Shown here: positions 6,089 to 63,823 of the stretch, piece by piece
How the letters are laid out: each line of letters starts with the position of its first letter
Position numbering within the stretch: the first letter of the stretch is position 1
Assembly: GCA_965222605.1 (NCBI GenBank)
Contig: OZ244960.1
Coordinates: forward strand, 1,024,001 to 1,088,000
Length of the DNA: 64,000 nucleotides
DNA from: Candidatus Latescibacterota bacterium
GTDB lineage: Bacteria > Latescibacterota > UBA2968
Direction of reading: 5' to 3'
Position numbers and translations under genes: made by a program
The notes under the pieces: model-generated
The model's database searches: none
Told to the model about the DNA's origin: nothing
The model's input: only the letters and a program-made list of their open reading frames with translations

Positions 6089-8383
6089 GTGAAAAAATTT
6101 TGTACGTACAGTTTTTTGATCCTCATTGTACTATTGGGCGGGCGCACGGGCGCACAAGAAGGCCCGGTGATTCAGGAGATCCGCATTCGAGGCAATGATT
6201 GGGTTGAGACTTCTTTTATCGAATCCCAAAGCGGTTTATTCAAAGGGCAGAATCTGGTAGAAGGCGAAGCCGCGCGGGTGATTCGCAATCTTTACAAAAG
6301 CGGTCTGTTTTCCGACATCAAAATTTCTGTAGATAAAGTGCCAGGTGGTGTGGCCGTTATTATTGATTTGAAAGCCGTACCGCGTTTGGGTGAGGTGGTT
6401 TTGACGGGCAATCGCGCAATAAAGGATAAGACCCTAAAGCGCGAAGCAAAATTGATTGAAGGCCAGTTGATACGGCAGCGAGAAAAAAAGAGAGCGGTCA
6501 ACAAGTTGGTCGCTCTCTATCGCAAAAAAGGCTATTTGCTCGCCTCAGTGGATGTGAAAGAAGAGGCAGTTGATGAAGATGGGCGATTGCCACTGACCTT
6601 TGAAATTCACGAAGGCGAAAAGGTCAATCTAAAAAAGATCCGTTTTCACGGCAATGCGGCATTGGCCGAAAAGCAACTGCGCAAGCAGATGAAAGAGACC
6701 AAACAAGACAACTGGTGGTTTGGGGGAGGCAAATATAGCAAGGAAACTTATCCCGACGATAAAGAATTGGTTTTGGCCTTTTACCGGCAAAACGGATATC
6801 GGGAAGCGGCAATTGTATCTGATAGTTTGTCCTATGGTCCTATCAAAAAAAATATGTATCTCGATATCACTATCGAAGAAGGGCCGCTTTATCGCTTTGG
6901 CGCAGTGAGCTGGTCGGGCAATGAGAAAATCACAGATGCTGGTTTTTCTCACTTTATTGTAGTCGATTCGGGCGCGGTTTACAACGAGGAGCGCGTCTTA
7001 AAATCGCGAGAGCAATTGCAAAATGCCTATATGGACATCGGGCATATTGGCTCGCAGGTTTTTCCGCAACAAAAACCCATTGAAGGCCACGTCGTCAATG
7101 TGCATTTTGACGTGGTCGAAAAAGATCCGTGGACAATTCGCAAAATTCTGATTACGGGCAATACCAAAACCAAAGACCGCGTGATTCGACGCGAGTTGCG
7201 CGTGCGGCCAGGCGATACGTTTAGCCGCGCACTTTTGGAGCGCAGTGTGCGCGAGGTCATGCAACTCAACTTTTTCACCAATGTGTTGCCCGAGCCTATC
7301 GCGGTAGAAGAAACATCAGAGATTGACCTCGAGTTCACCATAGAAGAAAAATCAACGGGCACGGCGTCTATCGGGGCGGGGTATAGCGAGCGCGACAAGC
7401 TAATTGGCACCATTGGGTTGCAAATTCCCAATTTTAGAGGCAATGGACAACAACTCGATTTCCAGTGGGAGTTTGGATCGCGCCGCGAAACCTTTAGTAT
7501 TGGGTTTACCGAACCGTGGTTCCGCAACACCCCCACGAGTATATCCTCATCGCTGTTCCGAAGCACCATACGACTGGCAACTTATGGCGTGGCTGACTTC
7601 GATCAACGCACAGAGGGCGGTGCGTTTCGCCTCGGTCGCAGGCTGCGCTGGCCCGATTATTCGCGCATTTCTGGAGGGTATCGCCTTGAAAAGGTTGCTT
7701 TTATCAATTTTTCCGATAGTACAGATGTAAGCAATCCCTTTTACGAAGACAATGTGACCAGTAGCATCAGTGCAAACTTGACCCGAGACAGCCGGGATTT
7801 GCCGATTTTTCCCACATCGGGTAGCGTGACCTCCTATTCGCCTGCACTGGCCGGTGGATTTTTGGGCGGTAATAGAGATTTTCTCAAGCACGATATTGTC
7901 ACGAGTTTTTACTTTCCCATATTCTGGCGATTGGCCTTAAATGTGCGGTCGCAATTGGGCTTTGTCGCCAGTTATGGCACCGAGCGTGTCCCGTACCAGG
8001 AGTTGTACACACCGGGCGGCGTTGACATTTTTGAAGGCACCATGTTGCGCGGTTATCCCGACCGTTCAATTGGCCCTCGTGATATTAGGGGTGAGCCAAT
8101 TGGGGGTGTTGCGCAGTTGTTGTTTAACGCAGAGATCAGCATTCCCATTGTACCCAATCAGTTTTATGGTCTCATTTTTGCCGATGCGGGTAATGCCTGG
8201 GAAAATCTGGACCGGATCAGCCTGACGGATATGCGTCGATCGGCCGGTTTTGGCATTCGGATTGTGGCGCCTGTGGTGGGTATTATGGGATTTGATTTTG
8301 CATGGGGATTTGACCGTCGGCGTGTCGATGGTCAATCTGTACAGATGATGACACATTTCCAATTCGGTCCGCAATTTTATTAG
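6089..8383 (+). CDS. bamA: Outer membrane protein assembly factor BamA
   Basis: Signal peptide, five POTRA-like repeats (..I.I.GN..), KTKDRVIRREL, LRGY motif, aromatic C-terminal beta strand. Confidence 0.96.
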   Translation: MKKFCTYSFLILIVLLGGRTGAQEGPVIQEIRIRGNDWVETSFIESQSGLFKGQNLVEGEAARVIRNLYKSGLFSDIKISVDKVPGGVAVIIDLKAVPRLGEVVLTGNRAIKDKTLKREAKLIEGQLIRQREKKRAVNKLVALYRKKGYLLASVDVKEEAVDEDGRLPLTFEIHEGEKVNLKKIRFHGNAALAEKQLRKQMKETKQDNWWFGGGKYSKETYPDDKELVLAFYRQNGYREAAIVSDSLSYGPIKKNMYLDITIEEGPLYRFGAVSWSGNEKITDAGFSHFIVVDSGAVYNEERVLKSREQLQNAYMDIGHIGSQVFPQQKPIEGHVVNVHFDVVEKDPWTIRKILITGNTKTKDRVIRRELRVRPGDTFSRALLERSVREVMQLNFFTNVLPEPIAVEETSEIDLEFTIEEKSTGTASIGAGYSERDKLIGTIGLQIPNFRGNGQQLDFQWEFGSRRETFSIGFTEPWFRNTPTSISSSLFRSTIRLATYGVADFDQRTEGGAFRLGRRLRWPDYSRISGGYRLEKVAFINFSDSTDVSNPFYEDNVTSSISANLTRDSRDLPIFPTSGSVTSYSPALAGGFLGGNRDFLKHDIVTSFYFPIFWRLALNVRSQLGFVASYGTERVPYQELYTPGGVDIFEGTMLRGYPDRSIGPRDIRGEPIGGVAQLLFNAEISIPIVPNQFYGLIFADAGNAWENLDRISLTDMRRSAGFGIRIVAPVVGIMGFDFAWGFDRRRVDGQSVQMMTHFQFGPQFY

Positions 8384-15085: not shown

Positions 15086-15202
15086 TGGAGTTCCTTAAAG
15101 TGAGGTACCGTAATACAGAATGCTTTGTTCCTTGCATAAGACGATAAACCGAGGTATTTTAAAAAAAACAAAGAGCAAGTGGAATTATTTAAGGATAAAA
15201 AA

Positions 15203-15493
15203 ATGAAACAAACCACTCTTGAAGTGCAGTTTATCCTTCCGATTGAAAACATCTCTAAAAAGCATCAAACGGAGGCCACAAAAAAGGCAAAAGCAGCCTT
15301 TGTGCTTGAACTCCTCCGACAAGGGGCCATCAGTGCTGGCAGAGCCGCAAAACTCCTCAATATTTCTCGATGGGAACTTTCAGAGTTAATGGCTGAAGCC
15401 GGCATCTCCCCTTTTGATGACAGCCTCACCTCAGAAGACTTAGCGGCTGAAGTCAATAGTGCGCTACAGGCTTTCGAGAAACCCACACCATGA
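15203..15493 (+). CDS. UPF0175 family HTH antitoxin
   Basis: LLRQGAISAGRAAKLLNISRWEL; ATGA overlap with the following PIN gene. Confidence 0.85.
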   Translation: MKQTTLEVQFILPIENISKKHQTEATKKAKAAFVLELLRQGAISAGRAAKLLNISRWELSELMAEAGISPFDDSLTSEDLAAEVNSALQAFEKPTP

Positions 15494-15978
15494 AGGTTGT
15501 AGCAAACAGTACCCCATTGATTGAACTCTCAAAAATTAAGCGGTTGGATCTGCTCCGAGATGTATATGGCTCAATCATCATTCCAGAAGAAGTTTACACC
15601 GAAGTAGTCATTGATGGGGCTGGAAAACCTGGGGCAGCAGCAGTGAAAGAAGCCCAGTGAATTCTCTGTAGGTCGGTGATAGACAAAAATCAAGTCCTGA
15701 TACTTCACAACCGCACACTGCTTGATTTAGGCGAATGTGGAGCTATTGTGCTTGCTCAAGAAATTGATGCAGGACAAGTGATTATTGACGACCGCGTTGC
15801 ACGGCGTGTGGCAATTGCCCGGGGATTGCCCATTATCGGTACAATCGGCGTTCTCCTTGTTGCCAAAGCCCGGCACATCATTCCCGATGTCAAACCCATA
15901 CTCGATAATCTTCGGGACCATGGTACGCGAATTAGCCAAAAACTCTATCACCAAACACTCACAACCGCAGGAGAGTAA
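15490..15978 (+). pseudogene. DUF3368 PIN-domain toxin with an in-frame TGA at 15658-15660
   Basis: MKVVANSTPLI...IIPEEVYTEV...EAQ*ILC...LDLGECGAIVLA...IIDDRVARRVA...IGTIGVLL in one frame; the stop falls where the family usually has Trp. Confidence 0.85.
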
Positions 15979-20401: not shown

Positions 20402-20599
20402 ATGCAAACCTGGAAGGATGTATTCCGCAGAAAAGAAGAATTGCAAAATCTGAAAAACATCGGATTCTGCTTTCTGATCGTCGTTGCCCTCATCACGGGG
20501 TCTTATGCCCTGACGGGGTTGCGAGACATTTTTCAAGTCTCGCTTGCGGAGCCTACCGAATGGGAAGTCACCGCAATACCTGACGATATTGACGAGTAG
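20402..20599 (+). CDS. Small single-pass membrane protein
   Basis: GGAG SD, one hydrophobic helix (IGFCFLIVVALITGSYAL), acidic C-terminus; directly upstream of the ECF sigma. Confidence 0.6.
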   Translation: MQTWKDVFRRKEELQNLKNIGFCFLIVVALITGSYALTGLRDIFQVSLAEPTEWEVTAIPDDIDE

Positions 20600-20628
20600 T
20601 GATAACCATTCACCAGAGGATACTAACC

Positions 20629-21210
20629 ATGCAGTACGCAGAAGAGCGAGATCTGGTGCGTCGCACGTTAAATGGCGATGCCGGGGCTTTCAACAGCCTT
20701 TACAAACGCCATCACGCCCGGATTCTCGCCACACTAATTGGACGAACCAGAAATCGACACGATGCTGAAGATTTGATGCAAGTGACTTTTTTGCGCGCCT
20801 ATCGCGGTTTGTCCGGATTCCGCGGGGAGGCCGCATTCTCAACATGGCTGATGCAAATTGCCCTGAATGTGTGTACCACGCACATGCGATCCAAACAAGC
20901 CCGTAGATCGTGGCAACAAACCATTGAAGATACACAACTCGGTTATCGAGATACGTGGGAGCCAGCCAGTACAGAGCGTCCCGACGATGCGTTGTCTCGA
21001 AAAGAATGCCGCGCAATGCTCGAAGAAAGCATAGCAGAACTGCCACAGCGATATCGCCATGCCGTGCGCTTGCGCTATGTAAAGGATCGATCTTATGCAG
21101 AGATTGCCAGAGAACTCGGCGTGCCAATGGGCACTCTGAAAACCTGGCTTCATCGCGCGCGACACCAGTTGCAAGAATCTCTTAACGATACGGAACTTGC
21201 GGCAATGTAA
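20629..21210 (+). CDS. ECF RNA polymerase sigma factor (RpoE/SigW-like)
   Basis: GDAGAFNSLY, DAEDLMQVTF, FSTWLMQIALN, SYAEIARELGVPMGTLKTWLHRAR. Confidence 0.93.
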   Translation: MQYAEERDLVRRTLNGDAGAFNSLYKRHHARILATLIGRTRNRHDAEDLMQVTFLRAYRGLSGFRGEAAFSTWLMQIALNVCTTHMRSKQARRSWQQTIEDTQLGYRDTWEPASTERPDDALSRKECRAMLEESIAELPQRYRHAVRLRYVKDRSYAEIARELGVPMGTLKTWLHRARHQLQESLNDTELAAM

Positions 21211-21762: not shown

Positions 21763-22522
21763 TAATAAAATCTAAAATTGATCTTTCCAATTCCCAAAGG
21801 AGGTTTCCCATGCTCAAAAATTACCTGACCATTGCCCTGCGAAATCTGGTGCGCTACAAAATATACACCGCGACCAATGCCCTCGGCCTGGCAACGGGCA
21901 TTGCATTTTGCCTCCTCACATTTCTCTACGTGCGGCACGAATGGACTTATGATCAATTTCACGAAAAATCCGACCGCATTTTTCGACTCGGCATGTCTAG
22001 CGGAATGTTTGGCGGAAGAGACAATGCCAGAGGTGTCTGGCTATCTGAAAAAATTGGACCACTCATGCGAGAAAACATCCCGCAATTCGCCCATGTTGTG
22101 CGGATACACGAAAGAACTGTAAAAGTGTCTCACGGCAACAACACCTTTGAAGTAAAATCTCTGTTTACCGACGAAGACTTTTTTCAATTATTCACTTTTC
22201 CGCTCATTCACGGCGATCCCAAAACCGTGCTCGCAAACCCAAATAGCATTGTCTTAACCCAAAGTGCGGCACAAAAATATTTCGGACAAAACGATGTTGT
22301 GGGACAGGAACTCAGCATCCGCCATAGAATTTGGAATGAAGAAGAAAAGACTTTTGTCGTAGCGGGTATCGCAGAGGATCCCCCTGAAAATTCCAGCATT
22401 CAATTTGATCTGATTTTTTCTTATGCATCAATTCCGCCCTCTAAGCGGAGCACGGTGAGGATGTTTATATCACAAGATGGCAAAGCCGAACGCAAAGAAA
22501 TTACCCCGCCCGTCTTCTCTAA

Positions 22523-24229
22523 CCCGACTAATTCATGAACTGTAATGGTTGGGGTTGTTTGTCAGGCGGCATCGGTTCCAAGCATCAAAATGAGGGTGCT
22601 TTCTATCTTGTCTGCCGTCATAGGCGTCTTCATAGAGTTCAAGCAGCCCAAATCGTCCCCTGACAGGCTCTGCCAGTGTCAAAAGTACAGACCGGTCCCT
22701 TGCCAGTCCTGTCTGTGGATAAGTCCGTGTATTTGTAAAGTCAGCAAGTGATGGGACAGACCCCTATTCCTTCCCCGTTGATGGGTTATGGCACCGCCTT
22801 TGCCAGATTGCACAGGATTTTATCAAAAAGGTGTGGCAATGGAAATGACATAGGCAGATGGAAGGTGATCTTTGTTTTCAACTCACAGACGCGTCCGGCG
22901 ACTTTAAGGAAACGATTTTGGAGGGTATTGACCTGTGCGTTTATCCACGTTGTGCCTTGTAATCCGATGTGCGCTAAGGTGTGCAACAAGACATAGGCAG
23001 CCGAATGGAGGAAGAGGCGGAACTGATTGGCTCCAAAAGCGTGACAGGACGTGCGGTCTGAGTGGAGAAAGGTTTTGTGATTTTTAATGAAGTTTTCCAT
23101 CTGTCCGCGCGCACAATAGATATTTTGGTAGATAAAGGAGGCCCTTGAACTTTCAAGGTTGGTCACGACAAAGCGTGTGTTTTGGCCTCGGGTGGTGATT
23201 TCAGCTTTGCATAAGATGCGTCTGGCACAGGCCCAAGTCTGGGCTTGGTAATAAAATGAGGTAAAAAGTCGCACGGGCTTGCCGGTTTGTGCATAAAGGC
23301 TTTTGGTCTGATCCATCAGGGGCTTTGAAAGGGCTAAGAGTCGGGTATTGGCACTTTGTCCGAGGATAAAAAAGAGGTCCTTTGTCGCACAAAAGTCCTG
23401 GACTTCTGGACTTGAGAAGTGGGCATCGCCTCGCAAAAAGAGTGCCACCTTTGGCCAAGCCTGACGAATATAAGCGACTAACCGCTTGAGAATGGTGACA
23501 ATCTGTTTGCCATCAGGACGCACACCCGGACGTAAAATCGTCGTGATTAGCTTGCCCGATTGCCCTTCATAAATATGCAAAGGCTGGTAGGAGTAGGCAC
23601 CCAAATACCCATTGAATAAGGACAACTGCTGCGTCCCATAAACCCTATCCTGCGTATCATCAATATCTAAGATGATCGACGAAGGCGGCTTTTTATACGA
23701 AGCAATAAAACAATCGACAAAGGCACGAGCAACGCGATACAAATCGCTTCTGCTCATCTGATTCTCAAACCGACTCATCGTGGGTTGACTGGCCAAGTTC
23801 TCACCACTTATGGGCAAGCGATCACAGGCAACCTTGAAGCCGGGATCGCTGCGTAAGGCATTGCAATCATTGGCATCTTCATACCCACAGGCAATTTGAA
23901 ACACGCGCTGTTTGATCAACTCTGCCGTGCTATGCGCCACATAACTTTGATGCCGATGGTCTTTAATCGCGCGACTCAAACGTGATAAAATACCCGTTTT
24001 GGCCTCCACTTCTCGAAGCAATAAGGCTCCGCTATCGCTGGTGAGAATACCCCCATCAAAGGCGAGGTTGAGACGTTTGCCGAAAATGCTTGCCAAAGGA
24101 ACCTTGCAATGATTATCTTGTGTGCTCACGGTAGTTTCTCCCAAGTTCATTGTTCAATGGTTATGCGTATAACCTAATATAATACAATAACTTGAATAGG
24201 GAAACTACCTTTTTTATGAATTTTTCGGG
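22523..24229 (-). mobile_element. IS1380 family insertion sequence (1707 bp)
   Basis: Terminal IRs cccgactaattcatgaa / cccgaaaaattcataaa; 4-bp TSD CTAA at 22519-22522 and 24230-24233. Confidence 0.93.
22786..24150 (-). CDS. IS1380 family DDE transposase
   Basis: FDGGILTSDSG, GYEDANDC, LASQPTMSRFEN, LDIDDT, RGDAHF, YCARGQMEN. Confidence 0.95.
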   Translation of the reverse strand: MNLGETTVSTQDNHCKVPLASIFGKRLNLAFDGGILTSDSGALLLREVEAKTGILSRLSRAIKDHRHQSYVAHSTAELIKQRVFQIACGYEDANDCNALRSDPGFKVACDRLPISGENLASQPTMSRFENQMSRSDLYRVARAFVDCFIASYKKPPSSIILDIDDTQDRVYGTQQLSLFNGYLGAYSYQPLHIYEGQSGKLITTILRPGVRPDGKQIVTILKRLVAYIRQAWPKVALFLRGDAHFSSPEVQDFCATKDLFFILGQSANTRLLALSKPLMDQTKSLYAQTGKPVRLFTSFYYQAQTWACARRILCKAEITTRGQNTRFVVTNLESSRASFIYQNIYCARGQMENFIKNHKTFLHSDRTSCHAFGANQFRLFLHSAAYVLLHTLAHIGLQGTTWINAQVNTLQNRFLKVAGRVCELKTKITFHLPMSFPLPHLFDKILCNLAKAVP

Positions 24230-26160
24230 CTAAAGGGAACGATGTCACCTATATACAGCTAATTGACAAAGTACAATTGGCAGATATAGCCCCTGTCCTG
24301 AATGCATTTGTTGAAGCAAACAAAACCCCCAATCCTTTAAGCAGGGGCAGGTCTAAACGCAAGACTCCGGACTTGAACCTGCACTTGCAACCCATTGCGG
24401 ATATCCATTTTGATCGCGAAATAACAGAGGGGCTTTCAACACCGAGCAACCCCGCATATTCCTACATCCTCGCGGGCATCGCCCTCTCCGTATTACTGGT
24501 GGCGTGCATCAATTTTACGAACCTCGCCATTGCGCGGTCAGCGACCCGAGCGAGAGAGGTGGGGATACGCAAAGTAGTCGGAGCGATGCGTTTTCAACTG
24601 ATGAAACAATTTTGGGGCGAGTCCTTGCTGCTCACGGGCGTGGGAATGTTACTGGGGCTTGCACTAACAGAATTTTTTCTATCGACCTTCAACGCTTTGA
24701 CGCAAGTGAATTTAACACTGGATTATCGCCCTTCCCCATCCGGCGTGCTCTTTGGCGTATCGCTCTTATTGGTTATAGGTCTGGGCTCAGGCATCTATCC
24801 AGCACTGGTGCTATCGGGTTTTGACCCCATTGCCGTTTTGAAGAACCGATTCAATATTGGCGGCAGGTCCTGGTCTGGTCGCGTCCTGATCGTTGGTCAG
24901 TTCGTCGTTGCGATTTTGTTTCTCATTGCCACCCTTGTGATGTCTCGGCAGCTAACATTTTTAAAAGAAAAAAATCTGGGCTTAAATGAATCGCAGGTCG
25001 TATTGATAAACCCGCGGTACTCGTCACCAGACCGTCAGCAACGCCATCGGATACTGCAACTCTTCAAACAAGAGTTCAAACGGCACACAAATATCATTAA
25101 TGTGACGCAATCGAGTTTGTTCTCCAACTTGGAAGCGGACTCAGATAACCGCAAAAGCAATATTACATTTCCCAATGGAGAAGTGGTGGAAAAGGCTGAA
25201 ATTTCCGTGGATTACGACTTTTTCGACACACTGGGTATCAATTTATTGGCAGGGCGCAACTTTTCACCAGATTTTGGTACGGATGCAAAACAGGCCGTTC
25301 TGGTCAATAAAACATTTGTCGAACGCGCGCAATTGGAACAGCCATTGAACACGACATTGCCCATGACAAAGATGACGATCTCTTTTACGCCGGGAGATTT
25401 TAAGCCAGGAAGTAGCATACCTAAACCCACTCGAATAAAAGATCCCAAAATTATCGGTGTCGTAGATGATTTTCACTTAAAGTCACTGTATCATGCTCTG
25501 CCCCCTCTGGTGATATTTTTAGACGCAGCCGGCTTGCGCACAGACTTCCTGGTACGCATTCGCCCAGAACGCATACCTGAAACGCTCAACTTTATGGCTG
25601 AAAAGTGGCAGGCTATTGCGGGTGATATACGATTGGATTACGTCTTCCTCGACGAAAATTTTGACCGCCTCTACCGCGAGGAAGAACGCTGGGGTACCAT
25701 TGTCCAATACGCTTCTTTCTTCGCGCTCTTTGTCGCCTGCCTCGGCGTCCTGGGCCTCACATCCCTCGCCATTACCCGCCGCACCAAAGAAATCGGCATC
25801 CGCAAAGTACTCGGCGCATCGAACCATCACATCGTTGCCTTATTATCCAGAGAATTTGTCGTACTGATCCTCATCGCAAATCTGATCGCCTGGCCCATTG
25901 CCCATTATGGCGTTGATCACTGGTTGCGGGACTTTGCCTACCGCATCGATGCAGGTATAAGCCTCTTTCTGCTCGGCGGATTACTCGTCTTTGTAACAGC
26001 CCTGCTCACCATTGGCGTTCAAGCTCTAAGGGCCGCACAACGCAATCCCGTCCACGCCCTGCGATATGAGTGAGATCAATTTTCCTATTTGACAGGATAG
26101 GACAAATCGTGAATATTTAAAAAAGAGGAAATAGAAACCGTTGTTGACCAGGAGACTCAA

Positions 26161-26460
26161 ATGGCTAACATAGATATTCCCCGAATCGCGTATCCCCACA
26201 TCGAACAGAATCCAGATATCCTCTCAGGCGAACCTATTATACGAGGAACACGCATTGGCGTGCGGCACATCGCAGAATGGGACCGCCGTGGATATAGTGT
26301 GGATGAAATTATCGCACAATATCCTCATTTGACCCATGCACAGGTTCAAGATGCCCTATCTTATGCTTTTGATCACAAGTCTGAAATTGATCAACTCATC
26401 CAGGCAAATACAGAAGACGCGGTCCGGTCAAAATATCAAGATAGTGCATGGATGCCATAA
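26161..26460 (+). CDS. DUF433 domain protein (antitoxin-like), with no adjacent partner
   Basis: PDILSGEPIIRGTRIGV...SVDEIIAQYPHLTHAQVQDALSY. Confidence 0.88.
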   Translation: MANIDIPRIAYPHIEQNPDILSGEPIIRGTRIGVRHIAEWDRRGYSVDEIIAQYPHLTHAQVQDALSYAFDHKSEIDQLIQANTEDAVRSKYQDSAWMP

Positions 26461-26550
26461 AGTTATATTTGATTACAAGGTTGGCGTTAACCCATTGATT
26501 TTTATTTTTAAAAAAGTTTAATTGTTTTCCATTAAACTGCAAATTTTTCC

Positions 26551-26579
26551 TTGACACCTGTTCTTTTGTTTAGTATTTT
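26551..26579 (+). promoter_or_regulatory. sigma70-type promoter of the two-gene hypothetical operon
   Basis: TTGACA-N17-TATTTT; SD AGGAGGT before 26624. Confidence 0.6.
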
Positions 26580-26623
26580 TGTGCATAGAACGTTGAGACA
26601 TAATTCTTTGACAGGAGGTAATC

Positions 26624-26920
26624 ATGGCAAGCATTGAGGTTCAGGCCGAACAGGCAATTGAGGAAATTTTATTGTCCGATTTGAGTCGGGATCTGCTCAA
26701 AGTTGCCGATCGCATTCAGGCCGAGATGCCGCATGTACCTTTTGACGCCATTCGCCCCGAAGCCATGGCGCGCGTCGAAGCCGCTGAGCAAGCCATCGAC
26801 ACCCTGGCCCGGGATTTGAGCCAGGGGCAAGGGGAACTCACTGAGTGGCACAGCGCCTTGACGGCTTACGAATCGGCCTGGTTTCAGGTTATTGAGTCTT
26901 TAGGCATTCGCAATAATTAA
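26624..26920 (+). CDS. Hypothetical acidic helical protein
   Basis: Strong SD, 98 aa, no recognised motif. Confidence 0.7.
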   Translation: MASIEVQAEQAIEEILLSDLSRDLLKVADRIQAEMPHVPFDAIRPEAMARVEAAEQAIDTLARDLSQGQGELTEWHSALTAYESAWFQVIESLGIRNN

Positions 26921-27000
26921 ATCACATATATTTACGTTTATTTTCGGCAATAAACGACCATTGTATTGCCGATTTCCACGAAAGCAAAGGAGAGATAGCA

Positions 27001-27714
27001 ATGTCCCAGCGAGATATAAAGACAGCAGTTCAACCTGTTGACCATATCAAGAAGCAGATTGCGGAATCCGAAGGTTTTCCCATCGGGAAGATCGATGAGT
27101 TTGTGGTATTCATTCAGAATGATCCCTACATCACATCTGCGGGTTTGCAGTACAAAATGCTACAAACCTATAAGGTTGGCAAATTCGCTGTACAGGCTGT
27201 AATGCCTTCCAAAGAAGAATACGCTCTATTGCGACGAATGATGGGATTAAAAGATGAGGAACCGCTGGTGGTAATGCGCGGTGAAGTGTGGGTTGATGGG
27301 CTTGCGCGGCCCTTTGTCGATTACGGTACCACAACGCCTAAAAATCTCAAAGGATTTGTGCGATTTTCAGATTATCCACTCGAAATGGCGACGCGACGCG
27401 CCACCAATCGGGCGATGCGTTTGGCTACCGCGACGGGGATGTGTTCTGTTGATGAGTTGCAGGTAGCCGCAGACGCCGCACAGACCAACGGCGATGTTGA
27501 AGCAGTTCACAACCATTCATCTGCTACGCAAAGTCAGATTGATCTGATTAAAAATCTGGGGCGAAGTCCACAGCTAACCGAACGAGAACGCGAGCGACTG
27601 AAAACCCAGATTGAAGATGGATTGGACAAGCGTCAGGCATCCGAATTGATTCAAAAAATAAAAGCGAGATTAGACGCCCAGCGCAAAGCCGATGCACAAC
27701 CTATTGCGGCTTGA
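27001..27714 (+). CDS. Hypothetical protein, possible Rad52/RecT-like single-strand annealing protein
   Basis: PYITSAGL...FVDYG...EMATRRATNRAMR...GMCSVDEL core, a low-complexity linker, and an ATQSQIDLIKNL C-terminal helical module; SD AAAGGAG. Confidence 0.5.
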   Translation: MSQRDIKTAVQPVDHIKKQIAESEGFPIGKIDEFVVFIQNDPYITSAGLQYKMLQTYKVGKFAVQAVMPSKEEYALLRRMMGLKDEEPLVVMRGEVWVDGLARPFVDYGTTTPKNLKGFVRFSDYPLEMATRRATNRAMRLATATGMCSVDELQVAADAAQTNGDVEAVHNHSSATQSQIDLIKNLGRSPQLTERERERLKTQIEDGLDKRQASELIQKIKARLDAQRKADAQPIAA

Positions 27715-27786
27715 TTTTGAGCCGGTTGTCGCGCGCATTCTTTCGTCAGGGGAGAGGGGAAGGATTTAGCGTACAGCCGGCACAAC

Positions 27787-27822
27787 AAAAAAGCGGGAGC
27801 TCTTTGAGAGCCCCGCTTTTTT
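27787..27822 (+). terminator. Intrinsic terminator
   Basis: aaaaaagcggg...cccgctttttt. Confidence 0.75.
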
Positions 27823-60521: not shown

Positions 60522-62417
60522 TCACCCCAACACCCGCACATCCCCCTGCCGAATGGTTATGCCCTGGGTATCGAAATAATTTAACAGCGGCACGGCAAAT
60601 TTGCGCGTGGTGCCGATCAGACTGCGAAAAGTCGATACGTCGATCTCCCCATTTTCTTTCAGATAATCGACCAATTGCCGCGTCACATCTTCTATCACCT
60701 CCGGGTGATAGAGCAACGTATCGTCCAGACGCACCAAATCTCCCATTGCCTGCATGGCTGACACCACATCGCGCACAGATCTTGCGTTGGTCTGGATAGC
60801 ATCGGGCAACGTCTTTAAGTCCTCAGGCGTTGTCCCCCCATCTTTTAACACACGCGCAATAGCATCGCGAATCTCCTCTTGCTCGGGCGTCAAAGCAATT
60901 TTGTAATCGCGCAACCCAATCAGCGCATTATCGCTTTTTAAGATATCCGCGTGAACGAGATGTTCAACGCCGTGAGCAAACAAATCATCAGAAGGCTCAC
61001 CTTTCACCAATGCGCGAAGCTCCTCGCGTCGCGCACCTGGCCGGAGGGGATACGCCTCGTGAAAAACCCGCATCGCATCGCCAATCCCGTCCAGCAATTC
61101 GCGCCAGCACATCGCGTGGACATACATCGCTTTACCCGCCTGCACATAAGAAATCACATCGCCCGAATTGACAAGCACGACGATCTGGCTCTCAATCTCG
61201 CTCGCAGACACCGCCATCTCAGATGCGAGTTGCAATGCGGTTCGCGGTTGCAATCGCGCAGCCTTTAAGCGCGTCAGCAAAACCTGCGTGGGATCGTCCT
61301 GCTCCAATTCTCGCAGTGCGTCATTAACATCGTCCCGAAACCGCCGGTGCTTCACGGGTTGCGGATCCAGCACCACGCCACCGCCCAGCGTTTGCACCGG
61401 TGAATACCGTCGGATCACAAACCGATCACCCCGCGCGGCAACGCCCGGTTCTTCCAGGCGCAACTGCACCAGTTGCGATTCGCCCGGCAACAATGTCTCA
61501 CCTTCGAGCAACACCACGCGGGCCAAAACCCCTCGTGGTCCCATCAGCAAATGCACGCGCGTGCGATTTGTCACATGCGCGGGTGCATCGGGTAGCATGT
61601 GCAAACGCGCATCGATCATATACGTCGTCTCAAAATACCCCGTTTGCGCCAGAAGATCACCCCGCGATACCTCATCGACTTCGGCCCCGCTTATATTGAT
61701 AGCCGCACGCGCGCCCACCCGCGCCACATCCACATCCCGCCCATGCGTTTGTACGCCGCGCACACGAACACTTTTACCCGACGGCAACACCGACAATGCG
61801 TCTCGCACGCGCACCTCCCCTGAAATCACAGTACCAGTCACCACAGTCCCAAACCCCTGCACAGAAAAAGCGCGATCAACGGGCAAACGAAAAATGCCCT
61901 GATCTGGCCGTGCTTCAACCCTTGCGATCTCCGCCTCAACCGCCGCACGCAATGTATCGATCCCTTCACCGGTGATTGACGATACGGGCACAATCGGCGC
62001 ATCCTCCAAAAATGTCTCGGCAAACACCTCCCGCAATTCCTCCTCCACCAGCTCCAGCCACTCTTCTTCCACCAGATCAACTTTTGTCAACACCACAATA
62101 CCGCGAGGCACGCCCAAAAGATTCAAAATGCCCAGATGCTCGCGCGTCTGCGGCATCACACCATCGTCGGCAGCCACCACAAAAAGAGCCAGATCAACCG
62201 TACACACCCCCGTCACCATATTTTTGACAAACCGCTCGTGCCCGGGCACATCAATAATGGTCACATTGTCTTTCCAATACGCAAAACCAATATCAATGGT
62301 CACGCCGCGATCGCGCTCCTCCGGCAAGGTATCAGTTTCAATACCCGTCAATGCCTTGACCAATGCCGTCTTGCCGTGATCAATATGCCCGGCCGTTCCA
62401 ATAATCACATGCGCCAT
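60522..62417 (-). CDS. selB: Selenocysteine-specific elongation factor
   Basis: GTAGHIDHGKT, DVPGHERFVKNM, DRAFSVQGFGTVVTGT, C-terminal TRKFAVPLL..FD winged helix. Confidence 0.97.
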   Translation of the reverse strand: MAHVIIGTAGHIDHGKTALVKALTGIETDTLPEERDRGVTIDIGFAYWKDNVTIIDVPGHERFVKNMVTGVCTVDLALFVVAADDGVMPQTREHLGILNLLGVPRGIVVLTKVDLVEEEWLELVEEELREVFAETFLEDAPIVPVSSITGEGIDTLRAAVEAEIARVEARPDQGIFRLPVDRAFSVQGFGTVVTGTVISGEVRVRDALSVLPSGKSVRVRGVQTHGRDVDVARVGARAAINISGAEVDEVSRGDLLAQTGYFETTYMIDARLHMLPDAPAHVTNRTRVHLLMGPRGVLARVVLLEGETLLPGESQLVQLRLEEPGVAARGDRFVIRRYSPVQTLGGGVVLDPQPVKHRRFRDDVNDALRELEQDDPTQVLLTRLKAARLQPRTALQLASEMAVSASEIESQIVVLVNSGDVISYVQAGKAMYVHAMCWRELLDGIGDAMRVFHEAYPLRPGARREELRALVKGEPSDDLFAHGVEHLVHADILKSDNALIGLRDYKIALTPEQEEIRDAIARVLKDGGTTPEDLKTLPDAIQTNARSVRDVVSAMQAMGDLVRLDDTLLYHPEVIEDVTRQLVDYLKENGEIDVSTFRSLIGTTRKFAVPLLNYFDTQGITIRQGDVRVLG

Positions 62418-63823
62418 CAGCCCTGTGCTCCTATTTTCACCGCATCGCCCACAATACTCACTTCGTCATCTCTTATCGTGCGCAAATCCAGAAATAACCG
62501 GTTATCGCGCACATAGCAAATAACAGGCGGATCATGGCGGCGCAACCTATTGGAAAGGGACAAAATATCGCCCCCGGAAATTGCTACCGCAACGCTCGGG
62601 ATATTTTCCAAAGGCAACGCGCCACTGCCGGTTTGTGCATAGGAATCGACCAATTCGCCTGAAAAACCCTCGAGTTCACCAATCGCCTGCAACAATCGTC
62701 GTCCGCGCTGCTCAAGTGTCGTCACAGGCTCTGTCAACATGCGGAGTGTAGGATGTTCGCGCGTTAATACCTCTGGATTCAGGAACAACTTCAACGTCGC
62801 TTCCAGCGCAGCATACGTCAGCTTCCCACAACGCAACGCGCGCATCAAGGGATTTTTGCGAATTTGTTCCACAACATTTTGTTTTCCCACAATAATCCCA
62901 CACTGCGGCCCGCCGAGAACCTTGTCACCGCTAAACATCACCACATCTGCCCCAGCGGTAATACTATCGGATACCAGCGGCTCATAAGGCAATCCATAAT
63001 CCCGCAAATTGACCAGCACACCGCCGCCCAAATCGTGTGCCACAGGCACGCCGCGTCGTCGTCCTAACACCACAATATCTTCCAGTGCTACTTCGGCGGT
63101 AAATCCCATCACCTTGTAATTGCTCGGATGCACCGCCAGCATCACTCCCGTATTCTCCGTTAAAGCGGCTTCGTAGTCGCTCAGATGAGTGCGATTGGTC
63201 GTACCCACCTCGACCAGTTGCGCCCCACTGCGCGCCATAATATCTGGAATGCGGAAAGACCCCCCAATTTCGACCAGTTGCCCGCGCGACACAATCGCCT
63301 CTTTGCCACCAGCCAGGGTATTTAACGTCAACAAAACAGCCGCTGCATTGTTATTTGCAATCGCAGCGGCTTCGGCACCGGTCAACTCACACAGCAATTT
63401 TTCCACAAGTGTCGTACGCGACCCGCGCTGTCCAGTCTCCAGATCCAATTCCAAATTGCTATACGAACCAGCAATATCAACAATATGTTTCACCGCAACA
63501 TCGGGCAATGGCGCGCGTCCCAAATTGGTGTGCAGGATAACCCCAGTCGCGTTCACAACACGCCTGAGATTTGGCGCGAGCGAATCTGCCAATTGGCTCT
63601 GTACATCGGCAACAATCCATTCGGTCAACACCTCACGAGACGCACCCACCGCTTCGCCATCGCGCATCATCCCCCGCACGCGATCTATCGCCTGCCGAAT
63701 CATATCGGTCAAAACAGATGTCCCACACCGCTTTGACAGCGTCTGTATCGCACGCTCATTGAGCACCCGATCCACACCGGGAATAATTGAATAATCTATA
63801 TATTTTTTTGAATCACCATTCAT
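62417..63823 (-). CDS. selA: L-seryl-tRNA(Sec) selenium transferase
   Basis: VVNATGVILHTNLGRAPL, SRGQLVEIGGSFRIPD, EVGTTNRT, FSGDKVLGGPQ. Confidence 0.97.
   Translation of the reverse strand: MNGDSKKYIDYSIIPGVDRVLNERAIQTLSKRCGTSVLTDMIRQAIDRVRGMMRDGEAVGASREVLTEWIVADVQSQLADSLAPNLRRVVNATGVILHTNLGRAPLPDVAVKHIVDIAGSYSNLELDLETGQRGSRTTLVEKLLCELTGAEAAAIANNNAAAVLLTLNTLAGGKEAIVSRGQLVEIGGSFRIPDIMARSGAQLVEVGTTNRTHLSDYEAALTENTGVMLAVHPSNYKVMGFTAEVALEDIVVLGRRRGVPVAHDLGGGVLVNLRDYGLPYEPLVSDSITAGADVVMFSGDKVLGGPQCGIIVGKQNVVEQIRKNPLMRALRCGKLTYAALEATLKLFLNPEVLTREHPTLRMLTEPVTTLEQRGRRLLQAIGELEGFSGELVDSYAQTGSGALPLENIPSVAVAISGGDILSLSNRLRRHDPPVICYVRDNRLFLDLRTIRDDEVSIVGDAVKIGAQG

Follow-up and report, generated by a model that had tools for sequence, protein, structure and literature searches.

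To our knowledge, when bacteria encode single-strand annealing proteins (SSAPs) of the Rad52 superfamily, the genes almost always belong to a phage or prophage, and proteins that the host itself owns, such as DdrA, are rare. The Rad52 SSAP fold consists of a three-stranded antiparallel sheet with one helix (alpha3) packed across it, a second helix (alpha2), a beta-hairpin and a further helix (alpha1); the sheet and alpha3 are its most conserved elements, and alpha1, the beta-hairpin and alpha2 are variable (PMC9870868). A structural survey uses a TM-score above 0.5 to a family representative as a criterion and describes thousands of structural SSAP candidates without annotation (PMC11783212), so that finding one more is unsurprising in itself. 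In Red-beta, the C-terminal domain binds both lambda Exo and the host SSB at overlapping sites (PMC11611040). DdrA of Deinococcus radiodurans is described as a radiation-induced Rad52 homologue that binds single-stranded DNA (ssDNA) at its 3' ends and protects them from nuclease (PMC515370). Here we describe a two-gene operon that lies in 64 kb of contig OZ244960.1 of a Candidatus Latescibacterota bacterium (GCA_965222605.1). We call this whole stretch of DNA the window, and all coordinates are positions in it unless another locus or a protein is named.

The operon encodes an acidic protein of 98 amino acids (aa) and, downstream of it, a protein of 237 aa. On balance, we lean towards the view that the larger protein is an unclassified SSAP of the Rad52 superfamily, derived from phage and domesticated by the host, which is encoded together with its acidic partner in a vertically inherited operon.

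Results

Predicted structure of the 237-aa protein

The AlphaFold2 model of the 237-aa protein has a mean predicted local distance difference test (pLDDT) score of 83.7, and most blocks of the core score above 90. The chain begins with two helices (residues 13-24 and 28-34), a beta-hairpin (35-38/41-44) and a helix (46-57). These are followed by a strand (62-67), an inserted helix (71-80), two more strands (90-98 and 105-111) and a long arginine-rich helix in the position of alpha3 (126-143). A disordered linker (156-171, pLDDT below 50) then leads to three C-terminal helices (177-187, 194-206 and 210-232). All five elements of the Rad52 SSAP fold are present in the model in the right order, with one inserted helix. 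The sheet and the helix that follows it are seen both in the order of secondary structure and in the Foldseek alignments of this predicted structure.

The original prediction had likened the protein to phage SSAPs of the Rad52/Erf/RecT superfamily and had set a match to the annealase fold beforehand as a test. Such a match was obtained, although it is modest, as no PDB match reached E <= 1e-3 and the TM-scores were 0.24-0.52. In the Foldseek search of the PDB, the 14 best among the matches listed (ranks 1-16) were all to human RAD52, Sak of staphylococcal phage 80-alpha or yeast Mgm101. Annealase rows reached probabilities of up to 0.97, and many rows of RAD52, Mgm101 and Red-beta had probabilities of 0.8-0.97; Red-beta (7ujl) stood at rank 22 with a probability of 0.91 over 139 columns. 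The first unrelated row was retron Ec83 at rank 17, with a probability of 0.12. Normalised to the target and with the whole model compared, the TM-score was 0.47 against Red-beta 7ujl, 0.52 against a RAD52 chain of 92 residues and 0.64 against a viral model of 127 aa. Among the viral predicted structures of BFVD there were 46 matches at E <= 1e-3, the best of them at 7.5e-7. The 50 BFVD matches listed comprise one Erf, three RecT, one RAD52-like and one PIN_53EXO protein, and 44 proteins without an informative name. From the model, we consider the assignment of the fold, and with it of the Rad52 superfamily, to be likely.

Relatives of the 237-aa protein

The 237-aa protein has no significant family in Pfam (the best match was DUF3072, E 0.14, at residues 200-224), and scans against NCBIfam and PADLOC (the latter at E <= 0.1) gave no match. 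Its sole match in PHROGs was phrog_11717, which has no assigned function, on the tail (E 1e-4). A word-indexed search found 125 homologues, all unnamed or 'hypothetical'. Those with a source label come from metagenome-assembled genomes (MAGs) of Latescibacteria/Latescibacterota or from MAGs labelled Gemmatimonadetes, and some lie on contigs of up to 8 Mb. A further word-indexed search with an alignment of distant relatives added no new names. There was no tblastn match to the 237-aa protein or to its relative P0178 in 50,697 deposited phage genomes, and hhalign comparisons of the family profile with single ERF and Rad52 sequences were uninformative. Our literature search found no description of the family, which may be listed among the unannotated candidates in the supplements of structural surveys.

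An exhaustive search of 1.84 billion cluster representatives returned 122 at E <= 1e-3, including 53 at E <= 1e-10. The region common to the 122 is the core, residues ~17-158. Thirty columns are invariant in 29 aligned homologues, and the invariant positions cluster (D107-Y-G-T110, N115, G118, F122, Y125, E128-M129, R132-R-A-T-N-R-A138, R140, A142-T143 and D151-E152).

Matches to phage families bear on the origin of the gene. The family phrog_22961, which also has no assigned function, is matched by 34 of 74 distant relatives over the segment of strand and alpha3. The RecT-like families phrog_4171 and phrog_2780 are matched by four of the 74, and not by the 237-aa protein itself. In a language-model atlas, the core lies nearest to unannotated clusters of Uroviricota (0.95-0.96). 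On this basis, the gene appears to have come from tailed phages; it now appears to be a host gene.

A C-terminal module common to ERF and Rad52_Rad22 proteins

The helical tail with an AT..Q...I..L motif that the original prediction had pointed out is real; in the model it is a separately folding three-helix module behind the linker. In pairwise comparison, tail residues 175-234 were 52% identical over 60 aa to a module of P0199 (E 2e-17), and the tail was 42% identical to a module of P0239 (E 1e-12). Both are Pfam ERF proteins (E 6e-23 and 9e-20, respectively) in which the module directly follows the ERF domain. P0246, which contains a Rad52_Rad22 domain (24.7 bits, where the cut-off is 20.3), has two tandem copies of the module at residues 86-131 and 147-189, and two copies are also present in the family members P0087 and P0099. 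Classification of the 122 representatives with hidden Markov models (HMMs) gave 11 with core and tail, 105 with the core only and six with the tail only. The last count is five by aligned stretch, and the HMMs, which we made from our own alignment, add P0225. This protein and another of the tail-only class, P0180, match no Pfam family.

These comparisons suggest that the C-terminal module of ~55 residues is portable and has been joined to three different annealase cores, as one would expect if it were a domain that docks to a partner. The shared tail also appears to be evidence for kinship with annealases that is independent of the fold match.

Conservation and inheritance of the gene pair

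A locus scan with one genome per species yielded 26 loci. All are from Latescibacterota except L021, which is labelled only 'bacterium', and 16 lie on 'chromosome: 1' records of 4.5-8.1 Mb. By tblastn, the 98-aa gene is directly upstream of the 237-aa gene in 24 of the 26 loci; the expected co-conservation of the pair in related genomes is therefore borne out. Of the 24 loci with the pair, 18 have a 98-aa ORF (open reading frame) at a distance of 74-108 nt upstream of the large gene. An upstream in-frame start extends the longest small ORF to 107-117 aa in L004, L011, L021 and L022, and in L016 and L020 the small gene was found by tblastn and is not listed in the ORF scan.

Glycerate kinase is a neighbour of the operon in 22 of the 26 loci, a TPR/GWxTD gene in 20, an FtsX permease in 10 and a DUF433 gene in eight, with one further DUF433 fragment. 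Seven divergent loci have differing neighbours (an extracytoplasmic-function (ECF) sigma factor, a sulfatase, NUDIX, a 2371-aa fn3 protein, a CT398-like protein, LysR and others), and no phage or repair genes were found in their flanks. Because the neighbours differ in the divergent loci, the cassette itself appears to be the conserved unit.

The surroundings in the window are of a housekeeping kind. Pfam scans of its 52 ORFs identified RF2, LysRS, ClpB, BamA, OmpH, FabZ, PyrF, IlvD, sigma factors, an RND pump, sulfatases and SelA/SelB, and no phage structural gene, integrase or nuclease/exonuclease, in agreement with the original prediction. The sole mobile gene in the window is an insertion sequence (IS) transposase at 22786-24150.

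For substitution rates and co-divergence we used 16 of the 24 pair-bearing loci; L004, L007, L010, L011, L016, L020, L022 and L024 were left out as near-duplicates or because of uncertain ORF limits. Both genes appear to be under purifying selection: in comparison with the window, the ratio of non-synonymous to synonymous substitution (dN/dS) was 0.11-0.23 in the small gene and 0.09-0.26 in the large one (13 comparisons each, with dS unsaturated). Over 120 pairs from 16 genomes, distances of the large protein followed those of glycerate kinase with r=0.963 and a slope of 1.14, and distances of the small protein with r=0.945 and a slope of 1.91; two of the glycerate-kinase rows have one stop symbol within the translated range. 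These data suggest that the operon is vertically inherited through Latescibacterota. The description 'domesticated' and 'outside any prophage' is supported by the housekeeping context, by synteny, by co-divergence with a housekeeping gene and by purifying selection. We are confident that the pair is host-domesticated and not a prophage.

The 98-aa partner protein

The 98-aa protein is acidic (isoelectric point (pI) 4.33, with 18 acidic and 7 basic residues), and the 237-aa protein is basic (pI 8.5). The small protein has 23 homologues, of which 21 are exactly 98 aa long and two are shorter (72 and 64 aa); 24 columns are invariant in 17 sequences. It is modelled as a three-helix bundle (pLDDT 78.8) with helices at residues 3-37, 45-66 and 72-97. 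No family was found for it in Pfam, NCBIfam, PHROGs or PADLOC. Its best Foldseek match in the PDB had an E-value of 0.43, to generic helical bundles, and the atlas held no usable match. The partner is without relatives outside the gene pair, and calling it novel was apt. Complex prediction of the 237-aa protein with the 98-aa protein gave scores of 0.00, 0.32 and 0.00, which speak neither for nor against binding; we would give direct binding between the two modelled proteins an even chance.

Conserved control elements of the operon

The operon is self-contained: a promoter, gene 1, a structured spacer, gene 2 and a terminator follow each other (Table 1). The two ORFs were confirmed on the plus strand, and the strong Shine-Dalgarno sequences (SDs), the promoter, the intergenic hairpin and the terminator that had been noticed earlier are all present.

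Table 1. Features of the operon, with positions in the window
Feature	Position	Strand	Basis or remark
Perfect inverted repeat GTTTAAT-N8-ATTAAAC, putative transcription-factor site	26516..26537		Would be bound by a regulator
Sigma-70-type promoter TTGACA-N17-TATTTT with conserved spacer	26551..26579	+	10/12 consensus positions
Shine-Dalgarno AGGAGG of the 98-aa gene	26613..26618	+	Sequence; kept in the multi-locus promoter alignment
Gene of the acidic 98-aa partner (pI 4.3), predicted three-helix bundle	26624..26920	+	ORF
Intercistronic RNA hairpin with 9-bp arms in the window and an 11-nt loop, then a short U-run	26944..26972	+	Covariation
Shine-Dalgarno AGGAG of the 237-aa gene	26988..26992	+	AAGGAG nearly invariant in the intercistronic alignment
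Gene of the 237-aa candidate Rad52-superfamily-like single-strand annealing protein	27001..27714	+	ORF, model and homologue searches
Annealing-domain-like core, residues 13-152	27037..27456	+	Model secondary structure; segment common to 122 representatives and phrog_22961
C-terminal three-helix module, residues 173-232, after disordered linker	27517..27696	+	Model; pairwise identity to modules of ERF proteins
Intrinsic terminator ending the operon	27793..27822	+	Stem 27793-27816, T-run 27817-27822

We regard the promoter and the hairpin as real because they are conserved across loci; a consensus score or a folding energy would be insufficient by itself. For the promoter, a match to the consensus alone is at chance level (3 sites in 2 kb compared with 2.8 +/- 1.5 in shuffled sequences). 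A 26-nt degenerate pattern, which comprises the -35 hexamer and the spacer together with bases 1-3 of the -10 hexamer, is unique within the window and was found in 23 of the 26 loci, once in each and solely at the operon. An alignment of the window with 19 loci shows hardly any variation between the start of the repeat and the end of the -10 hexamer in 19 of the 20 rows, and this includes L018-L023 despite saturated synonymous sites there; the exception is the row of L022, in which the promoter is located further upstream.

The inverted repeat has one exact match in the window and a sole other site if two mismatches are allowed. The 3' 20 nt of the repeat pattern occur in 22 of the 26 loci, once per locus and always at the operon promoter, and neither the inverted repeat nor the promoter spacer was found at any other place in the window or the 26 loci. 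The repeat is centred ~60 nt upstream of the predicted transcription start. For class I activators, ~60 nt upstream of the start is a typical position, and by analogy the repeat may be placed as an activator site would be. The solo large gene of L025 has a related promoter at 7895-7925 of that locus (likewise that of L026) that reads TTGACA-N17-TATATT and lacks the GTTTAAT-N8-ATTAAAC repeat; its spacer contains a TATACT-N7-AGTATA palindrome, unlike the operator layout of the paired genes.

The arms of the intercistronic hairpin are TCGGCAATA at 26944-26952 and TATTGCCGA at 26964-26972. Its folding energy is not significant by itself (z -1.49). Across 22 sequences (the window and 21 loci, with L005, L007 and L024 omitted as near-identical), 96.6% of the cells pair, compared with 8.5-60.8% in slid controls. 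Compensatory changes have altered four of the eight pairs on both sides (16 cells), and none of 500 shuffles reached as high a covariation score. The hairpin with its U-run could be a partial terminator or an RNA-stability element, an attenuator or a stabiliser, that sets the ratio of the two products. An anti-SD pairing just 3' of the hairpin, seen in the minimum-energy fold of the window, was dropped as its pairing bases are lost in divergent loci.

At the end of the operon, a hairpin followed by a T-run that starts 106-175 nt past the stop codon is present in 25 of 27 sequences, with stem sequences that differ by lineage. In the window, an untranslated 3' stretch of ~78 nt (27715-27792) separates the stop codon from the terminator stem, and the gap is comparable in related loci. 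An Rfam scan of the operon region gave sub-threshold chance matches on the terminator only.

Neighbouring genes

A DUF433 gene (26161-26460, E 2e-22) lies just upstream of the operon and has a weak promoter-like site of its own at 26144-26171. Because such a gene is present in so few of the 26 loci (the eight and the fragment counted above), we take it to be a variable insertion and not a part of the cassette. The IS transposase belongs to DDE_Tnp_1_4, is encoded on the minus strand and lies ~2.5 kb upstream of the operon, where it is flanked by one ORF that contains a MacB periplasmic domain (21810-22535) and another that contains FtsX permease domains (24277-26073). It looks like an ABC-permease gene has been split by insertion of the IS; terminal inverted repeats and a target duplication were sought for the element and not found. 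An ECF-type sigma gene is directly upstream of the pair in L002 (6503-7111) and L012 (6528-7106), and a few kilobases upstream of it in the window (20599-21207). As the operon promoter looks sigma-70-like, there is no evident link between this gene and the operon.

Further away, adjacent UPF0175 (15179-15490) and DUF3368 (15676-15975) genes are likely to be a toxin-antitoxin (TA)-type pair. The window also contains selB and selA, for the selenocysteine elongation factor and synthase, at 60522-63820; because both are present, the organism probably uses selenocysteine.

Discussion

Based on these results, we propose a model for the action and the control of the gene pair. In this model, the 237-aa protein would bind ssDNA along a groove that the sheet makes with the arginine-rich helix, with R132, R133, N136, R137 and R140 as candidate contacts. 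It would then oligomerise and either anneal complementary strands or protect 3' ends, and this could lead to RecA-independent repair of breaks or gaps. Real annealing or ssDNA-binding activity seems fairly probable to us; for a role in DNA repair, we put the chances slightly short of even.

The second part of the model concerns control. A dedicated transcription factor, possibly one that responds to stress or damage, may act on the near-invariant promoter and its inverted repeat, and the proportion in which the two products are made is probably set by the covarying intercistronic hairpin. The acidic partner would most likely modulate or escort the annealase. We think it rather unlikely that all of these proposals hold together, that is, that Latescibacterota possess a phylum-wide, vertically inherited and RecA-independent annealing system of phage origin that is governed by a partner protein, has a private operator and is balanced by an intercistronic RNA.

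Several results weigh against the interpretation of the 237-aa protein as an annealase that works with its partner. It matched none of the Pfam models RecT (PF03837), ERF (PF04404), Rad52_Rad22 (PF04098) and SSAP_Sak (PF06378) at E <= 1, and none of its 74 distant relatives matched an SSAP family of Pfam at E <= 0.01. Sequence profile searches of the PDB found no annealase; one alignment gave two unrelated rows at E > 2 and the other gave none. The best E-value of the Foldseek PDB search was 8.9e-3, with none of 500 counted matches at E <= 1e-3. The query-normalised TM-scores of the PDB annealase rows were only 0.21-0.33, and 0.21-0.41 over the PDB and viral matches with linker and tail included; they stay under 0.5 partly because the linker and the tail make up one third of the model. 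The bridge to the RecT-like PHROGs is weak: of the two matches that were located, one overlaps with the core at its end and one falls in a C-terminal extension outside it. The tail is not exclusive to annealases, since one of the six tail-only proteins, P0227, is a GTPase fragment. L025 and L026 (55% identity) have the large gene alone, between ExbB-like and glycosyltransferase genes, and neither the window nor the examined loci have an exonuclease or other repair gene beside the pair. Last, the alpha-beta-beta-beta-alpha topology of the core is also that of domains like the double-stranded-RNA-binding domain (dsRBD), and the atlas offers, as leads only, a dsRBD-like family (Slr1353_N, 0.89) and a Sak-SSAP family (0.86).

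This last point is the starting point for a different explanation, in which the core is a dsRBD-like or other nucleic-acid-binding domain, such as an RNA-binding domain or RNA chaperone, and resembles annealases only by shared topology. The slightly higher atlas score of the Slr1353_N cluster would fit this, as would the weak E-values of the annealase matches and the dsRBD chains at ranks 19, 33, 35 and 46 of the Foldseek PDB list. However, these chains have probabilities of 0.10-0.38 as opposed to 0.8-0.97 for many RAD52, Mgm101 and Red-beta rows, and the model contains an N-terminal helix and a beta-hairpin that are absent from dsRBDs. In addition, the named viral structural matches are mostly Erf, RecT and RAD52-like proteins, and the C-terminal module is common to ERF and Rad52_Rad22 proteins. 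The 237-aa protein has no dsRBD match in the Pfam copy used, which the Slr1353_N model may postdate. We consider a dsRBD-like core to be improbable. The pairing of a small acidic upstream gene (pI 4.3) with a basic DNA-binder (pI 8.5) could also be that of a conflict module, either an anti-phage or anti-plasmid device or a TA-like pair, in which the acidic protein neutralises the DNA-binder until infection. A family of phage origin would suit such a module, TA-like genes are nearby (DUF433 at 26161 and UPF0175/DUF3368 at 15179-15975) and the tightly conserved promoter fits autoregulation. Yet PADLOC has no match for either protein at E <= 0.1, and whereas defence and TA systems are distributed patchily, the pair is inherited vertically across the phylum, in single copy and at a syntenic housekeeping locus. 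L025 and L026 moreover keep the large gene without the small one, which would be intolerable for a toxin unless it were harmless. A conflict module therefore strikes us as quite improbable.

The phage affinities of the family and the IS element 2.5 kb upstream might suggest, instead, that the pair is a remnant of a prophage or mobile element, undomesticated and without host function. We rejected this explanation, which is strongly disfavoured and in our judgement hardly credible. There is no other phage gene in the 64 kb or in the flanks of the seven divergent loci, dN/dS is 0.09-0.26 for both genes, the divergence of the pair tracks that of its housekeeping neighbour, and the promoter, hairpin and terminator are kept where synonymous sites are saturated. 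Thus, purifying selection, housekeeping context, co-divergence and conserved control elements all argue for a host gene pair, and we continue to favour a domesticated annealase with an acidic partner.

New here, as judged from the alignments, are the near-invariant promoter with an inverted repeat, the covariation of the intercistronic hairpin and the conservation of the terminator. Throughout a phylum that is largely uncultured, an unannotated family has become a fixed part of the chromosome, with its own conserved DNA and RNA control elements; it looks like a phage recombination gene that was taken over by the host. If the protein is active, the pair would represent a further route by which cells domesticate phage recombination genes, the portable C-terminal module on three types of annealase core would be a candidate handle for a host factor, and Latescibacterota and their relatives would have a native recombineering protein. 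If the reading as an annealing system is true, this would be a second, independent annealase pathway of a bacterial host after that of Deinococcus DdrA. The shared tail may also serve as a means of finding phages of Latescibacterota.

Comparison with known systems

The 237-aa protein resembles the phage annealases of the Rad52 superfamily (Red-beta/RecT, Erf and Sak/Rad52-like proteins) in that the predicted elements of the fold come in the same order (PMC9870868) and a basic helix is predicted to lie on a three-stranded sheet. Like Red-beta, it has a flexible linker that leads to a small helical C-terminal domain, which in Red-beta has three helices (PMC9870868, PMC11611040), and it shares its tail module with ERF-domain proteins. 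It differs from the Rad52 SSAP fold by the extra helix (residues 71-80) between the first and the second strand of the sheet. Unlike the phage annealases, it is not a member by sequence of Pfam RecT, ERF, Rad52_Rad22 or Sak, and its gene is chromosomal and, as far as sequence can tell, vertically inherited. Whereas phage recombinases combine an exonuclease with an annealase, the adjacent gene here encodes an acidic 98-aa helical protein, and neither the window nor the flanks of the divergent loci yielded a nuclease family. Its true nearest relatives by sequence appear to be phrog_22961 and the unannotated Uroviricota clusters, both of which lack a functional annotation. Most relatives differ from it in having no tail, as 105 of the 122 representatives consist of the core only.

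The likeness to DdrA that was part of the original prediction holds in one respect and fails in another. DdrA is described as a Rad52 homologue, whereas the 237-aa protein does not match the Rad52_Rad22 family, and because this membership by sequence is missing, the comparison is one of life-style only. The Latescibacterota protein also comes with a small partner of its own and ends in another kind of C-terminal module. In life-style, the comparison stands: for DdrA, as apparently in our locus, a Rad52-related protein of a bacterium is encoded on the chromosome and outside a prophage. By analogy, DdrA would seem to set the best precedent for our proposal of an annealase-like repair factor that belongs to the host.

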